NCBI RefSeq assembly: GCF_036971445.1
Contig: NC_091474.1
Location: forward strand, 123,938,001 to 124,002,000
Length of the DNA stretch: 64,000 nucleotides
Reading direction: 5' to 3'
DNA from: Narcine bancroftii
Taxonomy: Eukaryota
A model generated the notes under the pieces. That model saw only the letters and a program-made list of their open reading frames with translations. It was not told the DNA's origin and made no database searches. Position numbers and translations under genes: made by a program. This document shows, one piece after another, positions 6,125 through 63,029 of the stretch (within the stretch, counting starts at the first letter, position 1; each line of letters opens with the position of its first letter).

Positions 6125-6214
6125 ACAGTAATTCTGACTCGTTGGTTGGATATGGGGCTTTGCAAATGGCTTCTGTGGCTGCTGGATTCATTCACATGCC
6201 CTCTTTGTCAATTG

Positions 6215-10670: not shown

Positions 10671-10718
10671 ACTTGTTCCTGTTTCAACTTATTTTTGGGT
10701 GTGAAATCGAGAAAAGAA

Positions 10719-11090: not shown

Positions 11091-11129
11091 AGCCCCCACC
11101 AAGTGCCGACGACTCGAACCGAAAACAAC

Positions 11130-11145
11130 GGCTCTTTTAAGAGCC
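11130..11145 (+). terminator. Histone mRNA 3' stem-loop
   Basis: GGCTCTTTTAAGAGCC followed by a purine-rich HDE-like AAAGGAG near 11161. Confidence 0.95.
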
Positions 11146-17935: not shown

Positions 17936-18401
17936 TCATTTATATAAAATGTTTACACTTCGATGCTGCTGCAAAACAACTAAGGTGGCTACTTGTTCAT
18001 GAATATAAATTCTGATTCAGCCCAGAGCGACCAAAACCTGGTATTCAGACTCATCCCCTCAACAGTCTTGTATGTCCGAAACCTCGATCAGATCTCCACC
18101 ACCCTTTGTTCCAAGCAGTGAAACAAAAATTCTCCCCAGCGGCCTTTTCCCACTCCACACGTCAGTATTACTGCCTACGAGGCAGGGACTGCCTTCTGTT
18201 ACTGGCGGCGGTCTGTGATTGGTGGCTGTGACATATCCAATGAAATGTTTAGAGAAAATTCTTGTTGTTCATTCGTCCACATCGACCAATGATACTCGTT
18301 GCGTCCCCATTCCCTTATTAGCATAGCATGAGGGCACTGCCTATTTAAACCGCACTCGTTCCTTCTTCAGTTTATTTCTGAGTGTGTAATCAAGAGAAGA
18401 A

Positions 18402-18773
18402 ATGCCTGACTCGAAATTAGCGTCCAAGAAGGGCGCCAAGAAAGCGGTGTCCAAGCCAACTGGCAAAGGCGGCAAGAGGCGCAGAAAGTCGAGGAAGGAG
18501 AGTTATTCCATCTACATCTACAAAGTGCTGAAGCAGGTTCACCCCGACACTGGGGTCTCCTCCAAGGCCATGGGCATCATGAACTCGTTCGTCAGCGATA
18601 TTTTCGAACGCATCGCGGGCGAAGCTTCCCGCCTGGCCCATTACAACAAGAGATCGACCATCAGCTCCCGGGAGATCCAGACCGCCGTGCGCCTGCTGCT
18701 GCCCGGGGAATTGGCCAAACACGCCGTGTCGGAGGGGACAAAGGCGGTGACCAAGTACACCAGCTCCAAGTAA
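18402..18773 (+). CDS. H2B: Histone H2B, replication-dependent (123 aa, PDSKLAS N-tail type)
   Basis: Intact ORF with ATTAGCAT and TATTTAAA upstream and a stem-loop downstream. Confidence 0.97.
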
Positions 18774-18812
18774 AGCCCTCACCAAGTGCCGACGACTCGA
18801 ACCGAAAACAAC

Positions 18813-18828
18813 GGCTCTTTTAAGAGCC
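18813..18828 (+). terminator. Histone 3' stem-loop
   Basis: GGCTCTTTTAAGAGCC, with HDE GAAAGAG downstream. Confidence 0.95.
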
Positions 18829-19337
18829 ACTTCCAGTCTCACTGAAAGAGTTCTCCGAATCCCCTTTGCGTGGAAATGGAGCAGAATTGGCTCTGGTTCT
18901 ATTTGTTTCCGGTTTTGTGTAATTGCAGACGTGCTTGGGAGGCTGGTTTCACTTCTGTATTTCTGCCCGCTGGATGACGGCAGTTGGTCTGATTTTGAAA
19001 TACTTTACCCTCGCATTTTTACAACCAGAGCCGATTAATGCAACCAAAAGTTGTTGATAACGTGATTAATTGCTATGTTGGCGACATTTTAACTGGATTT
19101 CCCCGTATTGTAACAGCTGATCAGGTTTCTACTCGGGAACATTATTGGATTGAACCTGAGAGGTGCTGTTATTGCATTAAAAACATGAACCCGTTGGAGT
19201 AATACAGCAGGTCTCGCAGCGTTCATAGCACGTAAAGCTATAACCAACATTACAGGCTTGAGTCCTTCAATATGCGAGTAAAAAGCAGGCAATGACTTGG
19301 CGCTGCCGTCTCGGATCCGCCTGCAGTTTGTGAACAG

Positions 19338-22095: not shown

Positions 22096-22347
22096 AAAAA
22101 TGAGCCAGAAAATGGAAGATGGAATTTAATGCAGATAAGAATGAGGTGTTACATTTTGGATGAACAAACTAAAGTAAGACATACACAGTAAATGGCAGAG
22201 CACTGAGGAGTGCAGAGGAACACATGGATCTGGGAATACAGAAACACAATACCCTAAAAGTGGTGTCAAAGGTAGACAAGGTTGTAAAGAAAGCTTTTTG
22301 CATCTTGGCCTTCATAAATCAAAGTATTGAGTACAGGAGTTGGGATG
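22096..22347 (+). mobile_element. CR1 LINE fragment, continuing at about 28320-28385 after the ERV
   Basis: KWKMEFNADKNEVLHFG...DLGI (CR1 RT C-terminal motif), split by the provirus with TSD GATG. Confidence 0.75.
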
Positions 22348-22870
22348 TGTGAGAGATGAGTAAAACTAATATGAAAATATGAAAGATGAAGAAAGCTAGT
22401 ATGGATATATGTGTAATGAATAAAGCCAGTATGAATAGGATAAGGATAGATAATAGAATGTAGGAAGTAAAGGTAGTCTGAATAAGATAAGGGTCTTCTA
22501 CCCTTAGACAGAATTAGCAAGTTCTGCACATAAGAAGTTTTGTAGCCCTGAGAGTCGGAAAGGTGTGAATAAGAACAATGACATGATGGGACACCGACAG
22601 GATACCCCTGGTCCTCCAAGTTCACAGAAACAGCATATAGGCAGACAGGATTGACTAATGCCAAAGTCATCCAGGAGGCAGAAGAATGTAAGGGGGAGGG
22701 TAGTTCTATACTGAAATAAACTGTATAAAAGTTGGGTGAGCCTCAGTGTATGTGTGTATTCCCAGGGTAAGGGGAAAGCACCCAACTTTGCATTGTTGTA
22801 TAATAAATGTTCTTTGTTCTCAATTGTTGTCTCGAGCAAATTCTGTGAAGGTACTTCTGTTTCTCACAGA

Positions 22871-22888
22871 TGGGGACTCGTCCGGGAT
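22871..22888 (+). other. tRNA-Pro primer binding site
   Basis: TGGGGACTCGTCCGGGAT, one mismatch to the canonical TGGGGGCTCGTCCGGGAT. Confidence 0.92.
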
Positions 22889-24217
22889 CCTAATCCTTCC
22901 GCTGACAGAGTGCCCGACAACGAGGGTAGGTGCACCCCGGCTGATTCAGCTGAACTCACAGACGGCGGGTGACTTATCAGTGGATGAAGCGAGTGATATC
23001 CGAGAAGAGGCATTGAGAACAAACGACGGGAGGACGTTAAGGAAGCGCGCTAGGAATAGCTACTGGATACCGGTAAGAGGAATTTTACTTACCTGTTAGT
23101 ATGGGAGGTGTGAGTAGCAAGGGAAATAGTCCTAAGGAAGGATGGGACAATCAGATAACTAAGCAATCAGATAGCATTAGGATTAATGCTATCTGATTGG
23201 GATGCGGGGAGAACTCTTGGGAAAGACAAACAGACCATGGTCAGGTATTGCTGTCTGGAATGGGTTAAAAAAACCCGATAAAAGGGAATTCGGTATATTG
23301 GCCAAAGTTTGGATTCGATGAGGACTGGATGTGTCAGGCATTGAACATCTGGCTCTATCAAAATCAAAGAGATAATATTGAGAGCAGAGAATATGCAGCC
23401 TAGCCTGCTGGCTCAGTGGATCCGTTGATCAACTGGTTTTGAATGGAAAGGAATGTAAGGACATTCTTGTGTCCCTGAAACACAAGGATGGGATGTGTTA
23501 CATTCCCTTCCTCCACCTTATGCTTCTCCTATGCCGATTCCTATCTTTTCCCTCTCTCCTATGTTAGTCTTCTTCACCTTCCCCTCCTCCCCCTCAGCTA
23601 AAGAAAGGAGAAGAAAGTAGGGGTGGTATGATGACCTGTTCACAAAGTACTAGATTACCACCTCAACTGACAAGAGAGGGAGGAGACTTTGATTCAAAAA
23701 AGTGTGAGACCCACCGGGAGGGAAGGGCAGAACCCTTTGATTCATTTCCCGGAGAGCAGGAATCTAGACATTATAAAGGAGAGGATAAACCAGAAATTAA
23801 CTGGATGAGACCTTTACGGGAAGTTCCCATGGGAGGAGGTCTCGGTTTCGTAAATGTGCCCCTGACTAGTACCGAGGTGCATAATTTTAAGAGAGAATGC
23901 CCAATAAACAGAAAGGAAAGGCTAAGATTTTGATGCAGGCAGTCAAGGAAGTCGTGGAGGGACAGCAAGGAAAGGGTAGGGGCTGTGTGCCAGTTCCTGG
24001 ACATTGGGAGGAGCTCTGGGATTGGGAGAGTAGAGACCAGAGCAGGGGCAAGGGTAGAGGGGAATTCCGGGGATGACAACCGTTCCCGGGACCTCGTGGT
24101 AATCCCGGTAGGAATTGGGAAACAGGAGCATTAGTTTGCTACCATTGTAAAAAGGAGGGACATTTTAAGAGAGAATGCCCAATGCGAGCCAGGGAGATGC
24201 GATCTTACGCACTGATG

Positions 24218-25649
24218 TGTTGGAATATAGGGGTTAATTAATCATAGAAAATATGTAGAATATATGCTTATGTACTTTTCAGTTTGTATACATGAATCCA
24301 GTACTATGTAACAATTTAATATTTACCTCATGGTGAAGGGAAAGAGTAATGTAAGTAAGGGCGTGCCACAGTATGTAGCAAAGTTGGCTGATTACAGTAG
24401 GTTTAGAATTGCCTGCTCCCAAAATACAAAAGAGAGGATATGTATGAAACAATTTAGTAGGAATGTTAATAGGCAAAAGGAGGTGTTGATTAACACAAAC
24501 AAAAAGAATCCTGACAGAGACTGTCAGAAACAAAGAGAATGAATCAGTAAGAAGGCTAAGACAGAAGGAGGTGTTGAGTAGAACACCTCTCTTCTTTGTC
24601 TTGGCTTCGCGGACGAAGATTTATGGAGGGGGTAAAAAGTCCACGTCAGCTGCAGGCTCGTTTGTGGCTGACCAGTCCGATGCGGGACAGGCAGACACGA
24701 TTGCAGCGGTTGCAAGGGAAAATTTGTTGGTTGGGGTTGGGTGTTGGGTTTTTCCTCCTTTGCCTTTTGTCAGTGAGGTGGGCTCTGCGGTCTTCTTCAA
24801 AGGAGGCTGCTGCCCGCCAAACTGTGAGGCGCCAAGATGCACGGTTTGAGGCGTTATCAGCCCACTGGCGGTGGTCAATGTGGCAGGCACCAAGAGATTT
24901 CTTTAGGCAGTCCTTGTACCTTTTCTTTGGTGCACCTCTGTCACGGTGGCCAGTGGAGAGCTCGCCATATAATACGATCTTGGGAAGGCGATGGTCCTCC
25001 ATTCTGGAGATGTGACCCATCCAGCGCAGCTGGATCTTCAGCAGCGTGGACTCGATGCTGTCGACCTCTGCCATCTCGAGTACCTCGACGTTAGGGGTGT
25101 GAGCGCTCCAATGGATGTTGAGGATGGAGCGGAGACAACGCTGGTGGAAGCGTTCTAGGAGCCGTAGGTGGTGCCGGTAGAGGACCCATGATTCGGAGCC
25201 GAACAGGAGTGTGGGTATGACAACGGCTCTGTATACGCTTATCTTTGAACCAACTGAAAAACCTCAGAACACCTCTACACCCCAGATAAATGCAGAGCAG
25301 GAAATTACGTGATAAATCTTATGCAAGAAATCTAGCAAAGAAAGCCAACTTTTGTTCCGTATGATAATGAAATCTAGCAAAGGAAGCCAACTTTTGTTCT
25401 GTATGATAAGGTTGAGCTATATAAACTGTAGAGACTGGACAGTAGAGGTCAGTCTTGGGGAATAGCGCACTGTGCAAGTGAACTATGAACTAATGACTGA
25501 ACCAGAACTCTGTTAAGTTTTATTCTTGTGCTGTGTAATAAACTGATTGTTGAACCGAATACTTTCTCCTATCACTTCATTTAACGAACACGCTGGACTC
25601 AGATGACACATAGACTAAATTAAGGGTAGGGTAAAGCCAGAGTCCGACA
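24218..25649 (+). mobile_element. Solo LTR of a third family inserted in ERV gag (contains an RTE)
   Basis: TGTTGG...CCGACA ends, TSD GATG (24214-24217 / 25650-25653), TATATAAA near 25418, AATAAA near 25537, and an internal direct repeat of GAAATCTAGCAAAG.AAGCCAACTTTTGTTC.GTATGATAA. Confidence 0.88.
24591..25265 (-). mobile_element. 5'-truncated RTE LINE with an 18-bp 5' inversion
   Basis: Same ORF end as 8341-8769. 11-bp TSD AGAACACCTCT (24580-24590 / 25266-25276). Confidence 0.93.
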
Positions 25650-25671
25650 GATGGAAGCAGATTATGAATAG

Positions 25672-26659
25672 GGGGGGGTCACGTTTCTCAGTCAATACAC
25701 ACCATGGGGCTGTACAGAGAACCATTGGTAAATTTAAGCATAGAACCCCACATTGACAAGATGACCTTTTTAGTAGATTCTGGGGCAGCCCGGTCTAGTA
25801 TTTTACAACCACCCGAGGGTGTTAAGATAGAGGGGACAGTGATGATTTCGGGAGTAGGAGGAAGAGATTTTACGGTCCCTATATTAAGGGATGTAAGAAT
25901 ACAAATGGGAGAGAAGATAGTAACGGAGGACATTCTACTAGTTCCCCAAGCTGGAGTTTGTTTGTTAGGACAAGATTTACAGGACCAATTGGCTATCGGC
26001 ACCAGACCACAGGAATCAGGTATCAGGGTTCAATTGTATGTATTAACCAAGGAGGATCGGGAACTAATAAATCCAGGAGTATGGGCAAAAAGAAGCAATA
26101 GAGGAGTGTTAGATATTCCTCCCCTGCAAGTTACTTTAAAAAATCCTGAGCAAGTAATTAGATGAAAGCAGTATCCAATTCCGATGGCTGGCCGAAAGGG
26201 GCTGCCGCCAGTAATTGACCAGTTGGTGAAAGATGGTATACTCGAACCTTGTATGTCACCTTTTAATACAATACCCCTACCCCTGAGGCGAACGACCAGT
26301 ACATATCCAAATATTTAAAGGGACTTTCTGCCTCTCTATACGAATTAAAACGGAAGGGTTTATTAGGTCAAAACCAACCCCTGGAGCATCCTATTCATTT
26401 TATTAAATCTGGTGATTGGGTATATGTAAAAGCATGGCAAGATCACCAACTAAAATCTGTCTGGGACGGCCCCTATTATGTACTTTTGATTACAGACACT
26501 GCAGTGCGAACAAAAGAAAAGGGGTGGACTCACATAGAACGAATTAAACAAGCTGCTGATCCACGGACTAAAGACATTGATAATCTACCCTCCACCTGGC
26601 GTGCAGTCCTTCATCCTTCTGATCTGAAAGTTGCACTACGCTGGGAAAAAGTGCTGTAA
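25672..26659 (+). pseudogene. pol: ERV pro-pol remnant: protease, RT N-terminus, large deletion, integrase C-terminus
   Basis: FLVDSGA...LLGQDL (protease), QYPIP...ILEPCMSPFNT (RT start), then IKSGDWVYVKAW...WDGPYYVLLITDTAVR (GPY/F integrase tail). Confidence 0.88.
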
Positions 26660-27757
26660 TGTTTTTACCATTTGCTGTTTTGTTTACTTGTTGGTTCCCA
26701 ATTTTTGGGAAATCACTAAATTGCTCACAATGTATTAAGTCCTCCTGGAATAGGGGCAGCAGAGGTGACAATTATTTACCTTTAGAATGCAGACAGGGCA
26801 CAGGTATAGAGTATAGTCATAGTGGGGTACCTTATTTAGTATGGGTTAATATAGGATCCCAACATGGACCAGGGAAGCAGATCGGCCCTAGGGGTGTAGA
26901 TTTGATTTGTATTTCGGCCTCTACAGGTATTAAAAAGAGGAGTTTTAAAGAGATAGCACAAAGAAGATGGTGGGGCAATGACAGACAGAATGTTAGTCAG
27001 GATTGTACATATGCTAATGTTCACAGACAGGCTGCAACTCACAGGTTCAGTGATACTTATGCTAATGTTCACAGACAAGCTGCAACTCACAGGTTAAGTG
27101 ACAAGAAACACCCCTCCCCAACTTGGTCTCCTGTAAATCATCCTTTGGGTCACACAGACATTCGGAATGTTAAGAACCACCACTGTAAGGGGAGTTCCAG
27201 TTGTAAACGACATAAGCTGCTCCAGAACACCACAGCTGTTTGGCATTTAAATCGTTTAATCAGACTCCAGCCTTGGAGATCATCACCGAACAGTGATGGC
27301 CCTGAATTTATGGGCTGAAGTAAGACGACAGATACGAGCCACAGTTCAACAAAACCGCCTGGCTCTCGATTACCTGTTGGCTGCTGAAGGCAATGTTTGT
27401 GAAAGACTGGTTAAGGACAATGCTCACAACGGTCAGGCGGTTAAAGACACTTCTTCAGGAGTTCGAAAATCTTCCCATGCCCAGGTTCAGACTTGGCAAC
27501 TTCGGTCCAGTGTGGGATGGACTAGACTTTTTATTGGTAACTGGAGTCTGATACCCACAGCCCTTATAGCAGCTGGACTCGCTATTCTGGCCATTATGGT
27601 GCTCCCCTGCCTAAAGACGTGTGCAGTATTTAATTCAATGGACCCCTCATCAGATCACTAAACCCAAAGGATGTATGTTTCCCAAATTCTGTCTGATGAT
27701 GCTGAGACTGCAGTTCGTTTACTGACTCGTTGGGAAATAGACCAAGTTTACAAGTAA
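26659..27757 (+). pseudogene. env: Short ERV env (ERV3/HERV-R-like TM), frameshifted
   Basis: Signal peptide MFLPFAVLFTCWFPIFG, LNRLIRLQ, immunosuppressive domain QQNRLALDYLLAAEGNVC, HAQVQTW, and a hydrophobic TM ending LPCL. Confidence 0.87.
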
Positions 27758-28650
27758 TACATTCCAGTTGAGAATTCACGAAGCATAGCTAAAAGAAAAG
27801 TGAGGATTGTGAGAGGTGAGTAAAACTAATATGAAAATATGAAAGATGAGGAAACTAGTATGGATATATGTGTAATGAATAAAGCCAGTATGAATAGGAT
27901 AAGGGTAGATAATAGAATGTAGAAAAGTAAAGTTAGTCTGAATAAGATAAGGGTCTTCTAGCCTTTAGACAGAATTAGCAAGTTCTGCATGTAAGATGTT
28001 AGTAAGCCCTGAGAGTCAGGAATGTGTGAATAAGGACAATGACATGATGTAACACCCCCCTGGTCCTCCAAGTTCACAGAAACAGCACATAGGCAGACAG
28101 GATTGCCTAATGCCAAACTCATCCAGGAGGCAGAAGAATGTAAGGGGGAGGGTACTTCTAAACTGAAATAAACTGTATAAAAGTTGGGTGAGCCCCAGTG
28201 TATGTGTGTATTCCCAGGGTAAGGGGAAGCACCCAACTTTGCATTGTTGTTTAATAAATGTTCTTTGTTCTCAATTTTTGTCTTGAGCAAATTCTGTGAA
28301 GGTACTTCTGTTTCTCATAGATGTTAACCCTAACCCTAATGTGTAAGACATTCGTGAGGTAAAATTTGGAGTATGGTGTGTACTCACAAGGCTTACATTC
28401 CCATTAGAGACGAACTTTGTTGCATCGGACAGTGTGTATTGAGAGGTTGCAGATTGGTGATATCACAAAGATTGAGACCGAAGATCGTATCCTTAGCGCA
28501 TGAAGACACCTAGGTATTGTTGGCACCAAGCAAAACCTCAGAACCAAGGTATGGTGGCCAAGTTGTGATAAAGACGCAGAGAAATTTGTTAAAACTTGTC
28601 ACGGATGTCAAATCACAAGTAGGAGTAATCCGCCAGAACCGATCCGGAGT

Positions 28651-38365: not shown

Positions 38366-40540
38366 ACCCACCCCCTCACGGAGAGAGCAGCCCCTCGCCA
38401 CGTTGGCATGAAATTCATTTCCTGTCCTCGTTCTCTGCCCTTGCCCATAGATTTCCCTTCATTGCTGCTTGTCAGGGCTCGTCTATTTTACAAACGTGAC
38501 CTTCGGCCGATAGACTTTCTCTTTGGAAATTACTAAGATGATGCGCGAATCCGTCGACACCGGTTACCCCCCCCCCACACCAAACTCTGGTCCGGGAACA
38601 CTCGCTTGTCTCGTCTCCGGCTGAGCTGAAGCCCCTCAAATCGGCACCGGGTCAGTAAATCGGCTCCGGATATTCACACACAAGGCTGGGGATATAATTA
38701 ATCGACATTTCAAATGCTATTTATAACAACTCAAATGATTTTCAGTGAAGTGATTAGAGTTTCACTGAAATTGGCGGGCGGTTTGAAAATAAAGAGCAGC
38801 CCATCAGACTGCAGCCTCTGGGCCGCGTGATGGCGGAAGTCTGACAATGCATTAAAAAAAATGTCCATATTTGGTCAGAGATAACATTTCCCGCCCGCCT
38901 CAGATCTTCATTCTCCTCACCATCCATTGATTCAGCCAATCACTGCCTTAAATTGTATGATTGTCATCTGCTGAAGCCAATCAGAAACCTTGGGGCGTAT
39001 TGAACTTAGAATCCTACAGTACAGGCTCTTCGGCCCTTGATGTTGTGTCCACATATGGTAGCTTAACAAAAAGGACTAAAAGCCTTTCGACCTCGTCACC
39101 ATCTTTCATCCATGTTGTTGAGAAACTGTCTTGTTAAATAACACAAATGTTTCACCCTCCACTACCATCAATTGTATTAACAGATAGGAGGAATGTTCTC
39201 TAAAATTCTCAGGGCCACAATTCCTCGACATTCAGTGCATTTTAATCAGGGAGAGTTAAAATTGTTAATTAAATGAAGTGACATTTTGGAAGAACTAACA
39301 CCATCTAATGATGAGGGCAGTGCAAATGAGGTCCACATGGACTTGAGTGAGGGCTCTGTAAAGTCTAACATAGAACACTGTAGATAAGGTGGGAGCCCAT
39401 GGATCCACGGCAAGAAAGCAAATAGGATTCAAGGTTGTAATGAATGAATGAATGGTGATCTTGTCCGTGATTCCCACCAGCTGTGTAGGTATAAAATATT
39501 CCCCAGAATGTGTGCCACAGCGTGAGGCAGTCTGAAAACATCCTCTGTCCTCAAGGAGCCCCACCACCCAGGGTAGCCATCTTCACTCTGCTATGATCAG
39601 GAAAAGAGCCTGAAGACGAGTCCTCAGCAGCTCAAGGACAGCTTCTTCCTGCTGCCATCAGATTCCATGCCTTCTGTTGACTTTTCGTGCACTATTTTTA
39701 TTTACACTGTGATCCTGCTGCAAAACAATGAAGGTAATAGCTTGTTTATGATAATAAATTCAGATTCAGCCCAGAACGACCAACAGCCAGTGTTCAGACT
39801 CATCCCTTCAATCAGTCTTGTAGGTTTTGAACCTTGTCATTCCCCTTCCAGATGTGAATACTTGGATTAGATTCCCCCCTCCCTTCTCAGTTCCAATGAG
39901 AGAAACATAATTCTCCCAAGTGGAGGTAGTCAGGGAACCCAGTTAAAATTACCTCGGAGGCTTGAAAACAAAACTTGCCCACCCGGCTGGAATGCCTGCC
40001 ATTATCGGGGTAGAGAAGGGGTCACTGCCATGGGGGGTGGGGGAAAACAATTGGGGTGAGTGAGGTTGGGGATGTGGGGAAATTACCGATGGTCCCCTTA
40101 GGGCGTCGCGTCACTTATAGCTTCAACACAGGGGTGGGAGCCCCTTGATTCTCCGAGATCACTATTTAATTGTTCCAACCCTCGCCCTCACCCATGCCCT
40201 CGCCCACCCACTTTATCCCCACTAATCTCACCTGGGTCCCCAGAGGGTGACCAAGGTGCTGCAGCTTAAAAGAACCTTGTGTTACCTTCAATGAGGCAGG
40301 AGCTGCCTTTTGTTCATGACTGCGGTTGGTGTGACATTTTCTGGTGGAACCTCTCCATCAACTTTGGTGACATATCCAATGAAATGTTTAAAGGAAACTC
40401 TAATTTTGATTATTTCAAATCGACCAATGATACCAGTTGCCGTGCCCATACCCACATTAGCGTAGCATGATAGAACTGCCTATTTAAACCGCACTCATTC
40501 GTGCTGCAACTTATTTTTGGGTGTGAAATCGAGAAAAGAA

Positions 40541-40912
40541 ATGCCTGGATCGAAAGCAGCGCCCAAGAAGGGCGCCAAGAAAGCGGTGTCCAAGCCAACT
40601 GGCAAAGGCGGCAAGAGGCGCAGAAAGTCGAGGAAGGAGAGTTTTGCCATCTACATCTACAAAGTGTTGAAGCAGGTTTACCCTGACACTGGGGTCTCCT
40701 CCAAGGCCATGAGCATCATGAACTCGTTCGTCAGCGATATTTTCGAACGCATGGCGGGCGAAGCTTCCCGCCTGGCCCATTACAACAAGAGATCGACCAT
40801 CATCTCCTGGGAGATCCAGACTGCCATGCGTCTGGTGCTGCCTGGCGAGTTGGCCAAACACGCCGTGTCAGAGGGGACAAAGGCGGTGACCAAGTACACC
40901 AGCTCCAAGTAA
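40541..40912 (+). CDS. H2B: Histone H2B, open frame but with several core substitutions (possible incipient pseudogene)
   Basis: Full 123-aa ORF with changes at normally conserved sites (human numbering Y37F, H49Y, I73M, T/S90I, R92W, V98M, L101V). The promoter octamer is mutated to ATTAGCGT. Confidence 0.85.
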
Positions 40913-40950
40913 AACTCCACCAAGTGCTGACGACTCGAACCGAAAACAAC

Positions 40951-40966
40951 GGCTCTTTTAAGAGCC
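40951..40966 (+). terminator. Histone 3' stem-loop
   Basis: GGCTCTTTTAAGAGCC. Confidence 0.95.
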
Positions 40967-41812
40967 ACTTCCAGTCTCACTGAAAGAGTTCTCCGAATCC
41001 ATTGGCATGGAATTGGAGAAGAATTGGCTCTGGTTCTTTTTGTTTTCGGGTTTATAATTGTAGACGTATTTGAGAGGCTGGTTTTACCAGCGATCTCATT
41101 CTCGTATCGCTCCTGTATTCCTGCCTGCTCCACTGATGGTAAATTAACCCTCTACAGCAGTTGGTCTGATTTTGAAATAGTTTACCCACGTTTTTACAAC
41201 CAGAGCCGATTAATGAGACCATGTTGTTGAAGTGATTAATTGCTGTGTTGACATTTTAACTGGATTTCCCCATATTATAACAGCTGATCAGATTTCTACT
41301 CAGGAACATTATTGGATTGAACCTGAGAGTCTGTAGGTGCTGTTATTGTATTAAAAACATGAACCTGTTGGAGTAAATCAGCAGGTCTCGCAGTGTTCAT
41401 AGCAGGTAAAGATATAACCAACATTTCGGGTTTGATCTCTTCTTCAAGATGCAAATAAAAAGCAGACAACGACTTTTGGCGCTGCCGTCTCGGATCCGCC
41501 TGCTTTGTTCATTAACAGTATGGGGGAGGGGAGGTGGTGCGGGCGGATGTGCTCATTTTCAGGAGAAATTGTAAAATTGTGCGAAAGGGGAAAAGGAGTG
41601 GAATGGGCTGTGGGTATCGAAGTCTGAAGCAGGCCGCAAGGACAAATGTTAATTCAATTAAGGGAGGGTGTGGGGGACGGTGGTGAAGGAGAAACATGAG
41701 AAGGGCAGGTAAAAGTTATTCTGCGCTACAAAGAGAATGGGGTGTGACAAATGCACGGAATACAAATACCTCACACACCCACAGCTGGTGTTCGTCCTTC
41801 CACACACTGAGT

Positions 41813-46314: not shown

Positions 46315-47095
46315 CGTTAATTGGGTCCAGAAAGATGTCTGGGCCTGTCGGGGTCACCACTGTAGCACTCTGCACAACTGGAGAAAGCACAGTCCCCACA
46401 CCAAAGGTGTTTAATGACTGTTTATTCAAATTCAGCCACCAAGTGTGTGGTGATGCCATAATCACTGCCCAGGGCGCGCGGTGGAAGGGAGGCTGGAGTC
46501 AAGAAGAACCCATAATGATGCCATCTTCCCATGGCTTCCCTGCCACGTGGCGATATATGCGGGGCCAATTCGCCATGAGAATGTGTGCCACCACACCCAT
46601 TTCTTTGAACCTCTAACTGATCTGAACAAATGCCTACTCACAGAATATGGTTGTGGTTGAACTTTGTGGTAATGGAATTAGATTATGGACAGAATGCTTT
46701 CCACAGTACTCCTGTAGAAATTTAAAAAAACCTTTGGTGTCATACGAAATCTCCTCAAACTATTCACAAAGTATAGCCATTAGCATCATGATGCCATCAA
46801 CATAGAGGCACCAGGACTGATCCTTAGAGATGATGACCCCTCGATGAGGACTGGATCGTGTTCTGGTTTTCTCCAGGAGGAAAGCCTCTAGAGCACACAT
46901 GTCAAACTCTGGCCCGCGATATAATTATATTATATTACATATATATTAGAGTTGGCCCGCTGGCCGCCGCGCAAGTATAGCACATGCACAGCAGCAAGCA
47001 CTACCGTAGTAGTTTATAGCACTTCCACAGCAGGCACAGCAGTCACCGATATAGTTAACGGGAAAGTTAATTAGATATTCACAGCGGCGCCGATA

Positions 47096-47249
47096 CAACG
47101 TACCCGCCGCCTAGCTCCAACGGACCCGCCGCCTAGCTACAACGGACCCGCCGCCTAGCTACAACGGTCCCGCCGCCTAGCTACAACGGACCCGCCACCT
47201 AGCTACAACGGACCCGCCGCCTAGCTCCAACGGACCCGCCGCCTAGCTC
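47096..47249. repeat. 22-bp tandem repeat x7 (CAACGGACCCGCCGCCTAGCT[A/C])
   Basis: Seven contiguous near-identical units with no spacers. Confidence 0.95.
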
Positions 47250-47250
47250 C

Positions 47251-47565
47251 ATGTGCCTGGACGTGGTGGGTCACCTCCGCGTCTCCTTGAGCTTCATCTG
47301 TGGGCGGGTGCTGCTGGGCATCGGACTTTCCGCTGGGGTGGAGGTCGCGGACGAGTTCCACCGCTCTCACGGTATTCCCGGTGAGATGGCGAGACCAGCG
47401 GGGACTCCTTGGGTTGTTGGCGGCGGTTACAGCAGGCGGAGGCGGGGGCGGAGGAGGGAGAGGGGGCGGGGGGGATGCCGCTCGGGTTTGCTGGCTGGGC
47501 TGGGGAGGGCTCCCTGCAGACCTCCGCTCCCTGGCATGCTTCTCGGCAACGTGCGATCCTTGGCT
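47251..47565 (+). mobile_element. Captured 5' fragment of a Rex1/L2-like LINE ORF, strongly A-depleted
   Basis: Translates ...RRRRGRRRERGRGGCRSGLLAGLGRAPCRPPLPGMLLGNVRSLA, matching the basic N-terminus and LPSILLANVRSL motif that precede the APE domain of Rex1-like LINEs. Confidence 0.72.
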
Positions 47566-48997: not shown

Positions 48998-49469
48998 TGT
49001 GAGAGATGAGTAAAACTAATATGAAAATATGAAAGATGAAGAAAACTAGTATGGATATATGTGTAATGAATAAAGCCAGTTTGAATAGGATAAGGGTCTT
49101 CTAGCCTTTTAGACAGAATTAGCAAGTTCTGCATATAAGAAGTTAGCCCTGAGAGTCGGGAAGGTGTGAATAAGGACAATGACATGATGGGACACCGACA
49201 GGATACCCCCTGGTCCTCCAAGTTCACAGAAACAGCACGTAGGCAGACAGGATTGCCTAATGCCAAACTCATCCAGGAGGCAGAAGGATGTAAGAGGGAG
49301 GGTACTTCTATACTGAAATAAACTGTATAAAAGTTGGGTGAGCCCCAGTGTATGTGTGTATTCCCAGGGTAAGGGGAAGCACCCAACTTTGCATTGTTGT
49401 ATAATAAATGTTCTTTGTTCTCAATTTTTGTCTCGAGCAAATTCTGTGAAGGTACTTCTGTTTCTCACA
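48998..49469 (+). mobile_element. Solo LTR of the class-I ERV family (472 bp variant)
   Basis: TGTGAGAG...TCTCACA with TSD AACC (48994-48997 / 49470-49473). Confidence 0.95.
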
Positions 49470-50399
49470 AACCTTAATGTTTGTAAAATGTCCAACACAT
49501 CTTCCTCAATTTCAACATTATCTAGCACACAACTCTACTCCATTTGGACCCCATCCTGATCAAGGTCCTGTTTTCTGGTGAACAGTGAAGAAACATATTC
49601 ATTTAGGACCTTTCCAAACTCTTATGCTTCTAGACACCTGTTGACTCTGTTACATTTAAGTGGTTTCGCCTTCATTTTCGTTATCCTGTTCTTAACACAT
49701 GCAAAGAATGCCTTGGGATCCTAATTAATTTTACTTGCCATGGCTTATGCCCGCTTTGAGCTCTCCTAAATCCTTTCTTAAGCTCCTTCACAGCCAGCTT
49801 ATAATTCTCATGAGCCCTTTGTGTTTCCTACTTCCTAAATCTAATGAAAGCTTCCTTCTTCCTCTTAACTAGCTGCCTCACCTGTTTGGTCAAGCACGCT
49901 TCCCTTTTCCTGCCCTGTTGCAGTAGGACAAACCTATCTGGAAGCTGAGCAAGTGGACCCGAAATATACTTCACTTTAATCTGTCTTTTTTCACATGAAC
50001 ATCTGTTCCCAATTTACTCTCCCTAGTTCCTCCCTCAGCCCATTGAAATTAATCATTTCCCAACTGAACACTTTCTCCATTTTGCCTGCTTTTATCCTTG
50101 GCCATAGCTATGCTAAATCTCAGGGAGTTTTTGCCGCTATCTACAAATTTGAACCACTGTCCCCTTGACTAACTCTTAAGACAGGTAACAAAAAATCTTT
50201 TCTGATTTTCCTCTCGGCATGGATAACCTAACACTGCCCATTTCAGTGACTATTATAAATCTGTGTCTGTACAGTACAATGTAAAACATAAAAGTCTGTA
50301 GACACTGTGTTTGTACTGTAGTAAAAACACCAAAATATAAGAGGAACTCAGCTGGCCTTTTGAGCATCCATAAATATATATATGTGGCACTTCAGCTAC

Positions 50400-53745: not shown

Positions 53746-55060
53746 ATATTCAGCGAAACTCTAGATTCCCTGAAATTGGCGGGCGGTTTGAAAATAAAGA
53801 GCAGCCAATCAGACTGCAACCTCTGAGCCGCGTGATGGCGGAAGTCTGACCCGCTGTCAAAAATATCCAAATGTGGCCAGAGATAACATTGCCCGGCCGC
53901 CCCAGATCTTCAAACTCTCTCCTTTCTATCCAGTTGATGACAGGATGCAGCCAAACGCTGCCTTAAAATGTATAATTGTAATCTGCTGATGTCAATCAGA
54001 ATTCCTGGGCGTATTGAACATGGAACAACACAGCGGAGTTCAGGCCCTTCGGTCCTCGATGTTGGCAAACAAGTCAGCAAAAGGACGCAAGGTTGTTCCG
54101 AACAGGATACAGACGGTGATGGAGGGATGACGGGCTTGCGATGGAACGTCACTTCACAGCAGGGGACCGCAGCAGCCGCCCTAGATCAACGCTTGGATAT
54201 GTGATCAGGGAGCTTCCAGCCAATGCCAGTATTGATAGGAGTCGAGACATGAGATGGTAATCAGTTGGTATGTCGGGGACAGCATTGTCCCATGGAATTT
54301 AATCCTAGTGAGTCCATGCGCATATATTTTTTGGAGGAGCAGAATGGCCCTGACGGATGAACAGAGGGACCTTGGCTTTGAAGTCAATGACCATATTTCC
54401 TAGAATAGATCCAGCTGCGTGAGGGATTATGGGCAGGGAAGACAGACATGGCTCTGCAGAGTTTTAAGACGCAGAGAGCGGACGTGAAGGCCGAAGCGGA
54501 CTGTTGAGGTTGTCAGCCCGCACCGGTGGCCCGCTGACGGCTACCACTGTCCTGTCGGCTCCCGCCGCCCCTGCCTTGAGGGGTCATGGAGGGAGAGGGG
54601 TGAGCGGGGAGATGGGTCACAGGCTGACGTCGTCATCAGACGCCCCTAACCTGCCGCTTGGAGCGGCTGGATAATTATAAGTGACGGAGGACCTATCCCC
54701 GAGAAGAGTTGCAATCGGTACATTCAGAAAGCCTTGTCTCTAGGTGAAAGGGCGGAGACTTTGTCTCGGGTAATTTCTTGCTTGAAAGGGAATGATTCTC
54801 TCCTGTAGATTCTTCAAACTCGGTGTTTCCGCATTCAAGGCAGGGACTGCCTTCTGTTACTGGAGGCGGTCGGGGTCTGTGATTGGTGGTTGTGAAGCCA
54901 TAGAGGATTTGGAGGAAACCTGCTGTTCATTCGTCCAAATCGACCAATGATACTCGTTTCCGTCCCCAATCCCTTATTAGCATAGCATGAGTGCACTGCC
55001 TATTTAAACCGCACTAGTCCCTGGTTCAGTTTATTTCTGTGTGTTTAATCTGGAGCAGAA

Positions 55061-55432
55061 ATGCCTGACTCGAAACTAGCGTCCAAGAAAGGTGCCAAGA
55101 AGGCAGTGTCCAAGCCAACTGGCAAAGGTGGTAAGAAGCACAGAAGATCAAGGAAGGAGAGTTACTCTATCTACATCTACAAAGTGTTGAAGCAAGTTCA
55201 CCCCGATACTGGCGTCTCTTCCAAGGCTATGGGCATCATGAACTCTTTCGTCAGCGATATTTTTGAACGCATTGCTGGCGAAGCTTCCCGTCTGGCACAT
55301 TACAACAAGAAGTCGACTATCAGCTCCCGGGAGATCCAGACTGCAGTGCGCCTGCTGTTGCCCGGGGAATTGGCCAAACACGCCGTGTCAGAGGGGACAA
55401 AGGCGGTGACCAAGTACACCAGCTCCAAGTAA
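55061..55432 (+). CDS. H2B: Histone H2B (123 aa, PDSKLAS type)
   Basis: Intact ORF, promoter and stem-loop. Many silent but few amino-acid differences from 18402-18773. Confidence 0.96.
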
Positions 55433-55471
55433 AGCCCCCACCAAGTGCCGATGACTCAAACCGAAAACAAC

Positions 55472-55487
55472 GGCTCTTTTAAGAGCC
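55472..55487 (+). terminator. Histone 3' stem-loop
   Basis: GGCTCTTTTAAGAGCC, HDE GAAAAGAG. Confidence 0.95.
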
Positions 55488-57610
55488 ACTTCCAATCTCA
55501 CTGAAAAGAGTTGTCCAAATGTGTCGGCATGGAATTGGAGCAGAATTTTTCTAGTTATTTTTGTTTTGATTTCATCTTGGTATCACTGCTGTACTCCAGT
55601 CCACTGAACTGACGGTAAATTAACTCCTCAGTTTTGTTATGATTTTGAAATACTTTACCCACATATTTTTACAATGAGATCTGATTAATGCGACCACATT
55701 GTTGTTGACATGTTATTTGCTGTGTTGAAGACATTTTATGTGGATTTCCCTGTATTGTAAGTGCTGATGATATTTCTATATGGGAATGTTATTGGTTCTT
55801 GTGGAATGAAACCTGAGAGTCCGTAGGTGCTGATATTTTATTAAAAACATGAACCCGTTGGAATGATGCTATATACATCCCGAATCGGCATTTGATCCCA
55901 TAGTTTGAAAGAAGTGGAATATTAACTTCCTGAACCCGGATCTTTGAATTAATTCCCACACGGTCTGTTTCAAACGTCGGTGTTCATGCATTTCTATCAG
56001 ATGTTTAAAATGCCTTTCTTGTTGAATTTATTTATGACAGTTTGGGGATTGATGGTGAAGTTTGTCGCCAGTTTATTGGTGAATGAGATGCCTCTCGTCT
56101 ATTTCACCTTCCCACAGACGTGAGCCGCTTCACCATGCTGTAGTCGCTCAGAAAGTACAAGGGGGCGGGAGGAAATTGTGAAAATGTCTCCTCAAAATGC
56201 TCACGAAGTATAGCCGCTGGCGAGGGTGATTCCATTGACATAGAGGCCCCAGGACTAATCCTCAGAGATGGTGACACCCAGGAATATGTACTTCACCCTC
56301 TCCACTACTGTCCTGTTGATGAAGAATGGGTCGTGTTCTGCTTTCCACCTGATGGAAAGTCTCCACATAGGGTGCAGGAGGGGGTTGACAGAAATAACTC
56401 TAGGACTGAGGCATATTTGCCCTTTGGTGGGTTCCAGCAGCTGGGGTCATTCTTTTTACAGATGGCATGAGGAGGAGGGTGGAAGCAATTTAACTGAGGT
56501 TTGGAAACTATAAGAGGCCTCGATAGGGTGGACAGGAAGGAACTGTTTCATCTTGTATTTGAATGTGTGATTTCTTAGAAAACATGAATGAAGGAAAAGG
56601 TTCTTTACTTTAAAGTTGATGTATACAGCCATGAGGCTGCAAGCCTCCATTACAGATCTCTCAAACAGCAGTCATCCATTCTCTGTGAGCCCCCTGCTGG
56701 CAGCTGTTAGAAACAGAATTACCTTTAAAGAAATTGCTCGAGACAAAAATTGAGAACAAAGAACATTTATTATACAACAATGCAAAGTTGGGTGCTTCCC
56801 CTTACCCTGGGAATACACACATACACTGGGGCTCACCCAACTTTTATACAGTTTATCTCAGTATAGGAATAACCCCCCCCTTACATTCTTCTGCCTCATG
56901 CTGGAGAGGTTTGGCATTAGGAAATCCTGCCTACGTGCTGTTTCTGTGCACTTGGAGGACCAGGGGGTATCCTGGCGGTGTCTTCTCATGTCATTATCCC
57001 CATTGTCCTTATTCACAACCTTGCCCTTGTCCCCATTCACACCTTTCCTACTCTCACAGTCCCTTCATATGCAGAGTTCGCTAATCCTGTCTAGGGTTTA
57101 CTAATTAAATATGCATAACTTGATAAATCTGTGTATGGCTTACTAATTATATATGTAGAACTGGCTAATACTATCTCAGGTTTTCTAATTATTTATGCAA
57201 GCCTTGCTAATTCTATCTGGGGCTTGGAGACCCTTATCTCGTTCAGACTAACTCTACTTCTATCATCAATTGTCTGTCCTTATCTCCTTCAGTTAGTGAA
57301 CTTGCTGATTCTCTAGGAGATTCTTATCTTACTCAGACAGTGTCAGCTTCCTGCCTTCTAATATCCATGTCTCATGTTGTTTGTACTGGCTTCATTCATT
57401 TACTTATGTATCAATTTTATTTTCTTCATATTGCAATATCAGTTTTTCTCATCTCTCACAATCCTCACTTTTCTTTTAGATCAGGAATACTGATCTCTCA
57501 CAATGATCAGTGTTACTGATCTCAATGTTACTGGTCTCAGTGTTACTGATCTCTACACTCCTCACTTTTCTTTTAGATCAGTATTACTGATGTGCTTAAC
57601 TGAAAATGTC

Positions 57611-58735
57611 TTACTTGACAACTTGGTGTTTTTCCCAGCTGGTCAGTAACCGGATTGCAGTCTCTGTGTCATTAGACAGAATTAGAGAAACATACATCCT
57701 TTGGGTTATAGTGTTCTGAAGAGGGGTTCGATTAATTAAATACTGCACCCAAGTCTTTAGGCAGGGGAGCACCATAAAGGTCAGAATAGCGAGTCCAGCT
57801 GCTACAAGGGCTGTGAGTATCAGGCTCCAGTTTTCAGTAAAAAATCTAGTCCATCCCACATCAGTCCAAGGTTGCCAAGTCTGAACATGGGCATGGGCAG
57901 ATTCTTGTCAAAGTCCTGAATCAGTGTCCTTAACCGCCTGACTGTTGTAAGCATTGTCCTTAACCAGTCTTTCAGAAACGCTGCCTTCAGCAGCCAACGA
58001 GTAATCGAGAGCCAGGTGGTTTTGTTGAACTGTGGCTCTGTCGTTTTTCTTCAGCCCCTAAATTCAGGGCCATTGCTTTCTGTTTGATGATAATGTCCAA
58101 GGCTGTTTGGAGTCTGATTAAACGATTTAAATGCCAAGCAGCTTTAGTGTTCTGTAGCAGCTTATGTCGTTTACAACTGGAACTCCCCTTAACGAGGTGG
58201 TGCTTATCATTTTGAATGTCTGAGGGACCCAAAGGATGTTTGAGAAGAGACCAAGCTGGGGAGGATTGTTTCTTATCATTTAACCTGTGTGTTGCAGCTT
58301 GTCTGCTAACATTAGCATGAGTATCATTGAAATTGTGAGTGCAAGCCTGTCTGTGTACATTAGCATATGTATTAACTCTCTCTCTCTGCGACATGTACAA
58401 TTCTGACTACCATTCTGTCTGTCTTTGTCCCACCATGTCCTTTGTGCTATCGCTTTAAAACTCCTGTCTTTAATACCTGTGTAGGCTAAGATACAAATTA
58501 GATGTACTCCACTAAAGCTGTTCAGTTCCCCTGGTCCGTATTGGAATCCCTTGTTAACCCATACCCCACTATGACTATACATTAAATCTATGCCCTGTCT
58601 ACATTCTAAAGGAAAATAATTGTCACCTCTGCTGCCCCTATCCCAGGAGGACTTAATACATTGTGAGTAATTAAGTGATGTCCCAGAAATGGAGAAGCAA
58701 CAATTAAACAATACAATAAATGGTAAAAACAACAT
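57611..58735 (-). pseudogene. env: Short ERV env, frameshifted
   Basis: MLFLPFIVLFNCCFSISG signal peptide, LNRLIRLQTALDIII, and TM LILTALVAAGLAILTFMVLPCL. Colinear with 26659-27757. Confidence 0.87.
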
Positions 58736-60534
58736 TACGGCACTTTTTCACGGCGTAGTGTAACTTTCAGGTCAGAAGGAAGACGGACTGCACGCCAGGT
58801 GGAGGGTAGATTATCAATGTTGTTATTCTGTGGTTCAGTAGCTGGTTTAATTCGTTGGATGTGGCTCCAGCCTTTTTCTTTCATTCGCACGGCAGTGTCT
58901 GTAATCAAAAGTACACAATAGGGGCCATCCCAGACAGGTTTCTGTTGGTGATGTTGGCATGCTTTTACATATAACCAATCACCAGATTTAATAAAAAGAA
59001 TAACAATCTGACTTTTCTTTGTGTTAGTGTAAAAATTGTAAAATGAAACACAAACCATATTTCCATGGGTTTTGAATATATTAGACCTTATTAAAATGTA
59101 GTTGGAGCTGCTTGTCTGTATGAGGCAACCAACCTGCAATTTGTTAGAGTGAGTACATAACAGACATTGCAGCACAAGAGCCCCTGCGAAAGAACTTGAA
59201 ACATATTCAACCTTTAGTTCTGCCTTAAGTACACAATTAGCCATAATGATTCGGCGAGTGATATTAACTGTATTCTAAATGAATTTATTTTAAAATAGCC
59301 GAGTGCGAATAAGACATGTCTTTGTCACTGCCGATGGCAATGAATTTGACGATTATTTAACATTGCTATTGTAATTGTAAACATTAAATGCCTTGTGTCA
59401 CAGCTCACAGGAGCTGGCCTTATTTAAAACAGTCTGTAAAACAGGCACCAAAAAATTTTAAAAGATGTTCTTATGAAGATTGCACACACAATCATTTAAG
59501 TACAGGCTAGTTTCTATTATATTCCACTTAAAGTTCTGCTGCATGAATCCTGGAGCTTGTGGAGTCATTATTGAATCAAGAAATATTGGTGCCATGCCAA
59601 TCTCATTCTAACATGCCAATTTCTCCAGTCCTTAAGTCAAGATGTACTGAATAGCATCTGGTACAAGATCTGTGAGTTATTAATGATATTATTATGCTTA
59701 TGCACCCAATTGTTCTGAACGATGCCACCAATTTAAATCATATTCCACCTATTGCAGTACTCACACAGCACCATAGACTAGTTCGCAGGTTTATTTCTCC
59801 ATTAAGCTAAATCCTGTCACGCAGGGATTACCTCCGTGATTATTTACAATGTAACTTCCGCACTACCGAATTTAAATATAAACCTGATGAATGGGGGGGA
59901 GAGTTATCATGAATTAAATTACAGCGGCAATACAGAGAAATTGTGCTGAGGCATTAATTTCACTCCGGAGGAAAATGCACCAGAGAAATGAATGATTAAA
60001 CTTATGGGAATCCCCAGAGGTATTTTTATTCTCCAAAGGTGGGTGATCTTTAAACTCACAGACCTTGACTGCTGAATGTGTAGAAGAAATGTACTAAATC
60101 TATTGATAGGGCTCCATACCTCTAACTGCAAGAGCGGACCCTGGAGCCTCAGTTTCAAGTGAACAGCATACAATTCATTAGAGCCACAACATGCTTAAAG
60201 GGACATGCACACTCCCCCTTCAACTGGCTGATCTTTACACATCACATCCTTTCTTTATCTCACATACACTTAAAGTTAAGATGTATAGAACTCACCCTAT
60301 TTGCGCAAACATTTCTCCCTGCAAATGTTATAACATCACTTAACTCTCAGGTACTCCCTGTGCAAAATCACATTTGAATACAATTTATTTCATAAATTGG
60401 AATTAACTGGTAGTTAAATTCGCTCATTCTACAGTATTGATAAACGATCATTTATGACTTTTAAATTTTAGCATGAATTTTAATCAATATTGGTCAGTGA
60501 CTGAAGTGGGAAGTCTAGTGATTTATGAAATTAT

Positions 60535-62036
60535 CTCTGGTCTCTACTCTTCCACTCCTGGCACTTCTCCCAACGTCCAGGAGCTGGCACACAGTCCCTG
60601 CCTTTTTCATGTTACTCATCTACTATTCCTTTAACTGCTTGCATTAAAATTTTCGCCTTTCCTTTCTGCTTATCCTCAGACCTCTGGATTTTTGTGCACT
60701 GTAGAAGCTGGGTAATTCCTTGCTCATGCCAATTTTCCATGTTTTGTAATTTTCTTCTAATGTCTGGGGCTGAGTTGGTAACAAAATCTGTTAGTACCAA
60801 TTGTTCCCCTGCTGGGGATTCTATGTCGAGACCCCATATTGTTGTATTGCCATGTGCAATCTATTCAGAAATGCAGAGGGGGTCTCCTCGGGACCTTGGG
60901 GAACCTCAAAGGCTTTCTTAAAATTCTGTCCCTTTGGGATAGATTCCTTGATTCCTCTTATCAAATTAACCCTGTATTCTTCCATCAATACCCGACCATC
61001 ATTGGTATTTTTATCCCAATTAGGTCTAGCCAAGGGGAATTTAGCTTCTCCAGGTACCGCATCTGGTCCCCCTTGGTGATCCTTATCCTAGACTCTAATC
61101 CCTGCCTGGCGAATCATTCCACGCTCATCCAAAGTAAACAAAGTCTTAAAGATAGATGTTAACTCATCCCAAGTATATATATTTGGTCCCAAAAATTGGT
61201 CTAACTGTTCGGCACATCCCTGGGGATCTTCTATCAGGGAGGTCAGTTCTTTCTTAAAGTTACGCACTTCAGTACTGGTCAGGGGCACATTTACGAAACC
61301 GAGACCCTCTCCCACGGGAACTTCCCGTAGTGGTCTCATCCAGTTGGTTTCTGGCTTATTAGGTCTGGGTTCCTGCTCCCTGGGAAATGAATCAAAGGGT
61401 TCTGCCCTTTCTTCCTGAAGAGTCTCACACTGTTCTGAATTAAAGATACCTCTCTCTCCTGTCAACAGAGGTGGTAATCCAGTGCTTTGTGAGCGAGTCA
61501 TCATACCACTCCTATTCTCTTCTCTTTTCTCTAGCTGTGGGGGAGGAGGGGAAGGTGCAGAAGGGTAAGGCATAGGAGGGGGAGGAAAGATAGGAGCCGG
61601 CATAGGAGGAACATAAGGTGGAGGGAGGGAATGTAAGCACATCCCACCCTTGTGGTTCAGGGACAAAAGATTCCTCCTCTCTCTTGTCCTTGCATTCTTT
61701 TTCATTCAAAACCAATTGATCAAACGATCCCCTGAGCCAGCAGGCTGCATATTCCCTGCTCTCAAGATTATCTCTCTGGTTTTGATAGAGCCAGATGTTC
61801 AATGCTTGACACATCCAGTCATCCTCAGATCCGAGCTTTGGCCAGTACACGGAGCTCCCTTTAACCGGGCTTTTAACCCATTCTATACAACAATACCTGA
61901 CCATGGTCAGTTTGTCCTTTCCACGGGTCCTTCCCGTGCCCCACTCAGATAACATCAACCCAAGCGGGCTGTACGTAGTTATCTGATTCTCACATCCTTT
62001 ACCAGGACTCTCTTCCTTGCTACCCACACTTCCCAT
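60535..62036 (-). pseudogene. gag: ERV gag (MA, late domain, CA), frameshifted and truncated before the zinc knuckle
   Basis: MGSVGS myristoylation-type start, WPKLGS, LPPPY, QGPEETPSAFLNRL (major homology region), FVTNSAPDIRRKLQ. Confidence 0.88.
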
Positions 62037-63029
62037 ATTGATAGGCAAGTAAAATTCCTCTTACCGAGTTCCAGTAGCAATGCTCTAGCGTGCTTCCTTC
62101 CGTCGTTTGTTCTCAATGCCTCTTCTCGGATATCACTCGCTTCTTCCACTGACCAGCCACCCGTCGTCCGTGAGTCCAGCTGAATCAGCTGGGGTGCACC
62201 TACTCTCGTCGTCAGGCACCCTGTCAGTGGAGGGAGTGTGATCCCGGACGAGCCCCCATTTGTTACAAACAGAATTACCTTTAAAGAAATTGCTCGAGAC
62301 AAAAATTGAGAACAAAGTACATTTATTATACAACAATGCAAAATTGGGTGCTTCCCCTTACCCTGGGAATACACACATACACTGCGGCTCACCCAACTTT
62401 TATACAGCTTATCTCAGTATAGGAATAACCCCCCCCCCTTACATTCTTCTGCCTCCTGCTGGAGAGGTTTGGCATTAGGCAATCCTGCCTACGTGCTGTT
62501 TCTGTGCACTTGGAGGACCAGGGGGTATCCTGTCGGTGTCTTCTCATGTCATTATCCCCATTGTCCTTATTCACAACCTTGCCCTTGTCCCCATTCACAC
62601 CTTTCCTACTCTCAGAGCAGTCCCTTCATATACAGAGTTCGCTAATCCTGTCTAGGGTTTACTAATTAAATATGCATAACTTGATAAATCTGTGTATGGC
62701 TTACTAATTATATATGTAGAACTGGCTAATACTGTCTAAGGTTTTCTAATTATTTATGCAAGCCTTGCTAATTCTATCTGGGGCTTGGAGACCCTTATCT
62801 CGTTCAGACTAACTCTACTTCTATCATCAATTGTCTGTCCTTATCTCCTTCAGTTAGTGAACTTGCTGATTCTCTAGGAGATTCTTATCTTACTCAGACA
62901 GTGTCAGCTTCCTGCCTTCTAATATCCATGTCTCATGTTGTTTGTACTGGCTTCATTCATTTACTTATGTATCAATTTTATTTTCTTCATTTCTTCATAT
63001 TGCAATATCAATTTTTCTCATCTCTCACA

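Follow-up and report, generated by a model that had tools for sequence, protein, structure and literature searches.

An endogenous retrovirus (ERV) in the genome of Narcine bancroftii carries foreign DNA in place of most of its enzyme genes, and it is probably one copy of a non-autonomous recombinant subfamily, founded by a single capture and then amplified in trans by helper viruses. The evidence comes from the anatomy of the provirus and of a sister copy, from the content of the foreign segment, and from contigs of other sequencing runs. All positions refer to the 64-kb stretch of DNA that was analysed, called here the window. I will refer to the provirus with the foreign segment as the carrier and to the segment itself as the insert.

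The carrier provirus and its sister

The main features of the two proviruses are these:

62261-63029, minus strand: 5' LTR of the carrier, pairing with the 3' LTR; the CAGC duplication lies outside both LTRs
62241-62258, minus strand: primer-binding site, read from sequence; the sister provirus has the same site
60535-62036, minus strand: gag (MA, proline-rich region, CA and the start of NC), from tblastn with P0040 and the Gag_p30 match
59003-60534, no strand: foreign segment, 1532 nt, 36% GC, replacing late NC, pro, RT, RNase H and most of IN
58738-59002, minus strand: C-terminal tail of the carrier's integrase (MLVIN_C, E 2.4e-8)
57614-58747, minus strand: env remnant, short and broken, recognised by its ORFs and by 82.6% identity to the sister provirus
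56705-57460, minus strand: 3' LTR of the carrier, preceded by a polypurine tract
22343-28323, plus strand: sister provirus, of the carrier family and without the insert (RVP, MLVIN_C; 4-bp duplication GATG)

The carrier is a class I ERV, gamma- or epsilon-like, with two LTRs, a short target duplication and matches to Gag_p30 and MLVIN_C, an assignment made by these features, as the carrier has no RT by which to place it in a genus and only 23 amino acids of the sister's RT can be placed in a tree. The target duplication is CAGC, 4 bp in length. The LTRs are identical in 744 of 769 alignment columns, the remainder being 12 substitutions and 13 gap letters, so that the preliminary description, which had estimated about a dozen substitutions by eye, was accurate on this point. 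The primer-binding site I take to be of the tRNA-Pro type. What the carrier has kept are the signals that act in cis (LTRs, primer-binding site, polypurine tract), while its enzyme genes are absent.

The gag gene was compared by tblastn with P0040, a full-length Gag of 563 amino acids from Narcine bancroftii that includes a CCHC knuckle; an intact Gag of this kind is therefore on record in the species. P0040 matches the carrier as three segments in three frames (residues 1-160, 167-400 and 401-501), ending with residue 501 at position 60540. The carrier's gag thus has two frameshifts, near 61535 and near 60833, and is cut before the CCHC knuckle, the junction lying about 35 codons ahead of it. 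The Pfam match to Gag_p30 falls within ORFs at 60615-61087, and the closest named relatives of the carrier's Gag are RefSeq models from Narcine bancroftii itself, at 81% and 73% identity. At the other junction, the Pfam match to MLVIN_C lies directly inside the viral side. Both junctions are sharp and fall inside viral genes, and the gag frame reads through five codons of the insert before it ends. The env remnant has, by eye, features resembling those of TM, and a Pfam scan of it gave no match to an env family.

Two observations concern the 3' end of the carrier. The sequence at the polypurine tract and LTR edge is doubled (57439-57494 and 57537-57591, 87.5% identity over 56 nt), with short tandem units between the copies. 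The integration site adjoins a minus-strand word (56687-56704) that I liken to the CTCF core motif.

Compared by blastn within the window, the carrier and the sister are 82.6% identical over 57539-59002, with 91% identity near the left junction, and 78.4% identical over 60535-60673. Between these stretches, 59003-60534 matches nothing in the window at E<0.3, the sister included, a test of foreignness made against one deleted sister copy rather than a full-length helper. The coordinates and anatomy first proposed, with viral similarity lost from late gag to the integrase tail, were therefore right. The short ATAAAA.GAATA similarity noted earlier at the junction marks the end of homology to the sister copy; a reading of it as microhomology with a donor would be conjecture. 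The sister retains pro, a short start of RT and the integrase tail.

Deletions in the sister itself have removed most of CA and the greater part of RT, RNase H and IN. It is interrupted by a 619-nt repeat that occurs also at 8168-8786 (96% identity), and three telomere-like TAACCC units follow directly after it, at about 28327-28340. Solo or partial LTRs that also belong to the carrier family lie at 5424-6125 and 49158-49471 (from 48998 onward) and are 75-88% identical to the carrier's LTR, so that several integrations of the family are found inside 64 kb. The window also contains four related histone H2B-like units with long shared flanks (10623-11700, 18306-19337, 40445-41511 and 54965-55867), their histone identity being read from sequence, with many retroelements separating them. 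Histone 3' stem-loops reach the Rfam gathering score in just two of the four units, at 11125 and 55467. A tandem array of a 22-nt GC-rich unit, with about eight copies, occupies 47072-47273.

Content of the insert

The insert had been described as non-viral and free of any recognisable transposable element. This needs correction for about 200-300 nt of it, which are the relic of a retroviral RT lying antisense to the provirus:

59547-59750, plus strand: decayed N-terminal segment of a class I retroviral RT, antisense to the provirus, matched by MMLV RT
59751-59830, plus strand: likely colinear continuation of the relic, with two frame breaks, through the region of the first catalytic Asp

In a search of PDB, MMLV RT matches the frame of 59547-59750 with an E-value of 4.6e-8; ten of the 14 matches listed are retroviral RTs and the other four are at chance level, while the other two plus frames of the insert gave one chance match and none. 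Among 1.84 billion proteins the relic found 60 matches at E<=1e-3. The best of these (E 9.4e-12) is P0043, an ERV-derived model from Mustelus asterias, with 60.3% identity over 68 amino acids by tblastn; a model from Amblyraja radiata ranks second and one from Mobula hypostoma fourth. Three stops interrupt the 72 codons of 59535-59750. The continuation through 59751-59830 comes from frameshift-aware alignments with P0044, P0045 and P0046 and is not significant alone, as 31 of 200 shuffles equal or exceed its score. The closest named proteins, XP_078090728 (Mustelus asterias), XP_032872110 (Amblyraja radiata) and XP_062925199 (Mobula hypostoma), have 50-60% amino acid identity to the relic. Relative to these class I ERV Pol proteins of cartilaginous fish, the relic is a fragment of 200-300 nt with stops, frame breaks and a long branch.

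Where the relic overlaps the RT start of the sister, the two are identical at 7 of 23 amino acids (33 of 69 nucleotides), as against 12 to 15 of 23 for P0043, P0044, P0046 and P0057, three of which are named as cartilaginous-fish proteins. A tree groups the relic with these four at 87/85, on a long branch (0.61) and without a star; it has 19 rows, 17 of the 60 matches having been chosen, and 73 columns, of which the sister's RT fills 32%. The relic therefore likely derives from an ERV lineage other than that of the carrier, judging by these sequence comparisons, and likely did not arise by inversion of part of the carrier's pol. To that extent the original notion of a defective ERV carrying DNA foreign to its own family is upheld, by the 7 of 23 amino acids shared with the sister's RT and by the absence of any match to the insert in the sister. 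P0044, P0046, P0057 and P0043 share a domain of about 150 amino acids upstream of RT, with HxT-like motifs, which strikes me as reminiscent of 2H phosphoesterase.

About 80% of the insert, or about 1.2 kb, found no match in the searches. Pfam scans of its six frames, with stops read as X, gave nothing at E<0.1 and missed the RT relic as well. A word-indexed protein search with the relic gave no match, and no related loci came up in viral contigs when these were scanned with P0043 and with P0040. As had been stated before, there is no TIR, poly(A) or long ORF: no TIR or repeat exceeds 22 nt, and ORFs wholly inside the insert have at most 91 codons. Rfam gave nothing at gathering score in the insert, the eight weak matches at E<=10 in 58900-60700 lying far below it. 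When RNA folding was assessed in windows of 120 nt, one of 27 fell below a z of -2 (-2.39, at 59260-59379), and that one lies inside a stretch that most copies of the element skip.

Three candidates were tried and rejected. A LARD-like element, a kind with structured internal RNA, does not agree with a single low-z window among 27. A gapped DNA pattern drawn from 59910-59961 had no matches in viral contigs, and its five metagenome matches are attributed to chance, as blastn extends none of them (best E 0.09). The 179-codon ORF at 58735-59274, which runs from the insert into the integrase tail, is not accepted as encoding a fusion protein, given that in the majority form of the element 1 nt is deleted at 59128 and the 5' part of the ORF is skipped.

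On the viral strand, A and T amount to 31.4 and 32.4% in the insert, 30.6 and 22.2% in gag, 31.4 and 26.5% in env, and 35.9 and 24.7% in the LTR. The bias of A over T that marks the viral parts is missing from the insert, which fits DNA that has long been resident in the host. The same figures tell against a different donor, in which the whole 1.5 kb is the interior of one older, internally deleted ERV, joined in reverse by recombination between ERVs with no ordinary host DNA involved. In its favour, the RT relic sits centrally in the insert, the left part loosely resembles the domain that lies upstream of RT, and the stretch 60014-60224 (plus strand) bears a weak, colinear resemblance to the integrase core of P0111. 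That resemblance (score 50, reached by 2 of 150 shuffles) is the best of 12 comparisons, fails once the 12 are counted, and is not regarded as established. The homologies looked for on either side of the relic are at chance, with scores as high in 51 of 200 shuffles for the upstream domain and in 84 of 200 for downstream RT. I consider an ERV donor throughout possible, though rather unlikely. It differs from the preferred reading, a single capture from a host region, in the donor alone, and the questions of donor and of DNA-level entry (discussed below) both overlap that reading.

Recurrence in other sequencing runs

Parts of the insert are present in 11 of 15 listed runs, from five studies and four organisms, none of which has as much as half of its words (best 0.33). 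The contigs of four of the 11 (X1, X5, X10 and X11) were aligned to 58200-61400. All 30 bins of this 3.2-kb region are covered in X1 and in X5, by 1303 and 569 contigs, respectively, of mixed identity. For single contigs over the insert, depth is 2124-3315 in X1 and 1107-1756 in X5, similar in order to that of gag and env; the comparison is with these viral parts and has no single-copy control, and depth is not copy number. No run with parts of the insert is recorded as RNA; X5, X6, X8 and X9 are RNA by guess only.

Both junctions are bridged among the pieces listed (32 of 1919): the left in X5 record 27 (depth 1545), which extends 31 letters or more to either side of it, hence in one of the four runs, and the right in X1 record 7, X5 record 28, X10 record 16 and X11 record 23, hence in all four. 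X10 record 14, with 16 letters on the viral side, and X5 records 29 and 30, each short on one side, were excluded as bridges. The full layout of gag, insert and integrase in these runs is pieced together from tiled contigs, none of those listed spanning the whole insert. An insert-free form of pol appears in X11, where a loose end at 59002 continues like the sister's integrase. Of the 181 loose ends 24 are listed, and a parent locus of low depth would escape notice among them.

The predominant form of the insert is not that of the window:

59232-59385, no strand: 154-nt stretch skipped by the majority form, kept by the window copy and a minority

The joint between 59231 and 59386 has depths of 3146 in X1, 1756 in X5 and 6.9 in X10, whereas contigs of the window type, which keep the stretch, have depths of about 150-170 in X1 and 127 in X5. 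The majority form differs from the window copy by about 4% (28 letters in 745 in X10 record 15), with several small indels across the insert. These 28 differences in 745 exceed the 12 in about 756 between the carrier's LTRs, so that the capture likely predates the carrier's integration.

X10 and X11 have depths of 2-7 and small shares of the insert's words (0.18 and 0.07). They may represent trace DNA, as further runs made from the samples of X7 and X10 have 0.00 of the words, and for these reasons no wider host range is claimed from them. Nor is the short list of organisms with parts of the insert taken to bear on conservation.

The prediction that further copies with the same junctions would exist is thus supported by the bridging contigs. 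It had also been said that the idea of transduction would fall if the insert proved to be a normal internal region of the ERV. At the level of the subfamily this is what the data point to: from the deep coverage and the bridging of both junctions elsewhere, the insert is likely what the copies of an amplified, non-autonomous subfamily ordinarily have as their middle.

A separate observation concerns Gag. The Narcine bancroftii Gag models P0001, P0002 and P0037-P0039 (315-316 amino acids; 12 XP accessions) have one capsid deletion in common and an identical frameshifted tail. A skip of about 337-346 nt that matches this deletion (60835-61173) is seen as joints in X10 and X5 and as a drop of depth in X1 and X5; the window copy does not have it. 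The open truncated-Gag frame at several loci could mark a young master lineage or, speculatively, might serve as a dominant-negative restriction factor.

Origin, spread and relation to known elements

Under the preferred reading, the donor would be long-resident host DNA (an older defective element, an intron, a lncRNA or a flank), inside which an ERV from a different lineage had already decayed. RNA of the carrier family would have recombined once with RNA, or less likely DNA, of this host region. The capture may have occurred by two non-homologous template switches on co-packaged RNA, or alternatively in two steps, the first a join at gag made by read-through or deletion, the second a single switch into the IN-env region. 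The product would then have spread by virtue of its LTRs, primer-binding site, leader and polypurine tract in cis, with Gag-Pol supplied by intact relatives; the filler would have drifted afterwards, and the dominant branch would have lost its 154 nt. I infer mobilisation in trans from the target duplication together with the missing pol. A word-indexed protein search with the pro-RT ORF of the sister found no intact helper Pol. The insert itself is likely neutral filler.

The foreign DNA might instead have entered at the DNA level, as filler when a resident provirus with a break or deletion was repaired, with reverse transcription responsible for the later spread only. The antisense orientation of the relic agrees with this, as does the absence of splice signals from both junctions, and none of the observations requires an RNA donor. 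No test made here speaks against entry by repair, which I consider rather unlikely; retroviruses are better known to capture sequence by switching templates onto co-packaged RNA. Such switching is discussed for recKoRV (PMC6112702).

It is improbable that the insert earns its place, whether by antisense RT RNA, made from hundreds of LTR-driven copies, that silences a rival ERV lineage (a virus-borne antisense or piRNA trap), or by a host regulatory element within the unassigned 1.2 kb that the family has scattered over the ray genome. If either were so, the insert would be kept for its benefit to the element or the host.

Improbable, too, is the version in the preliminary description, a conserved developmental enhancer transduced by the virus. 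Foreign, host-like DNA is indeed present, about 1.2 kb of it has no assigned origin, and the insert contains one TGATTTAT word. The claim that it is rich in homeodomain-type words fails, as none of 11 motifs is enriched at p<0.05 relative to 1000 dinucleotide shuffles. TAAT occurs 26 times with 27.0 expected, TAATTR twice with 4.5 expected, TGATTTAT once with 0.19 expected (p 0.17), and TTTAYGR three times with 1.2 expected (p 0.12). With the motifs at chance level and no excess of transcription factor sites among the 11, the term enhancer-like is not supported. Part of it is, moreover, an ERV relic, and the majority form skips 154 nt and has small indels across its length. A mis-join of the assembly at the window copy, to which one might turn because every listed run has less than half of the words of the insert (0.33 at best) and the exact copy is unseen in reads, is very unlikely, indeed close to nil, given that contigs of other runs bridge both junctions (the left in one of four, the right in four of four, among the pieces listed) and that the target duplication is intact.

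The preferred reading, a captured segment amplified with its defective carrier, may be set beside three known systems. Acutely transforming retroviruses capture v-onc sequences that replace viral genes, and depend on helpers. The ray element is like them in the replacement of viral genes by foreign sequence and in its likely helper dependence, and unlike them in that it carries no host coding sequence and makes no fusion with Gag, whose frame ends five codons into the insert.

The second system is ETn of the mouse, with a middle of no known origin. According to a review, ETn lacks coding capacity and depends on MusD for its mobilisation, with about 240 copies of ETn to 100 of MusD (PMC6466679). 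The ray element is similar as a non-coding LTR element whose ends are common to an autonomous family, trans mobilisation being demonstrated for ETn and likely here. ETn and MusD belong to class II (beta-like), in contrast to the class I ray element (Gag_p30, MLVIN_C).

The third system is recKoRV1 of the koala, in which the ends of KoRV surround a middle derived from the older element PhER, at many loci and with target duplications (PMC6112702). On that description, the two elements share the ends of a younger virus (5' LTR and leader on one side, env and 3' LTR on the other), a middle from an older non-coding retroelement, target duplications and presence at multiple loci. They differ in that the ray element keeps most of gag, has a middle of 1.5 kb mostly without match, and carries its retroviral part antisense to the carrier; for PhER, the cited passages give no orientation. 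The donor of recKoRV1 is PhER and its host the koala, whereas the ray element has a putative host-DNA donor and a ray as host. The ray element fits the testable features of the recKoRV/ETn kind and is a member of neither family, differing in host and in retroviral class or lineage. What deserves mention as different from the known kind is the antisense orientation of the retroviral relic, together with a cartilaginous fish as the host. The literature on Narcine retroviruses and elasmobranch non-autonomous ERVs that was surveyed, mostly open-access, contained no description of the element, and repeat libraries (Repbase, Dfam) may catalogue it.

Enhancer transduction is not indicated by present evidence. 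What the element does offer is an extension to cartilaginous fish, in which the biology of ERVs is little described, of the pattern seen with recKoRV and ETn, where recombination with old genomic DNA disables a retrovirus and the defective product multiplies. The insert is also a marker specific to the family, by which its expansion in electric rays can be dated.
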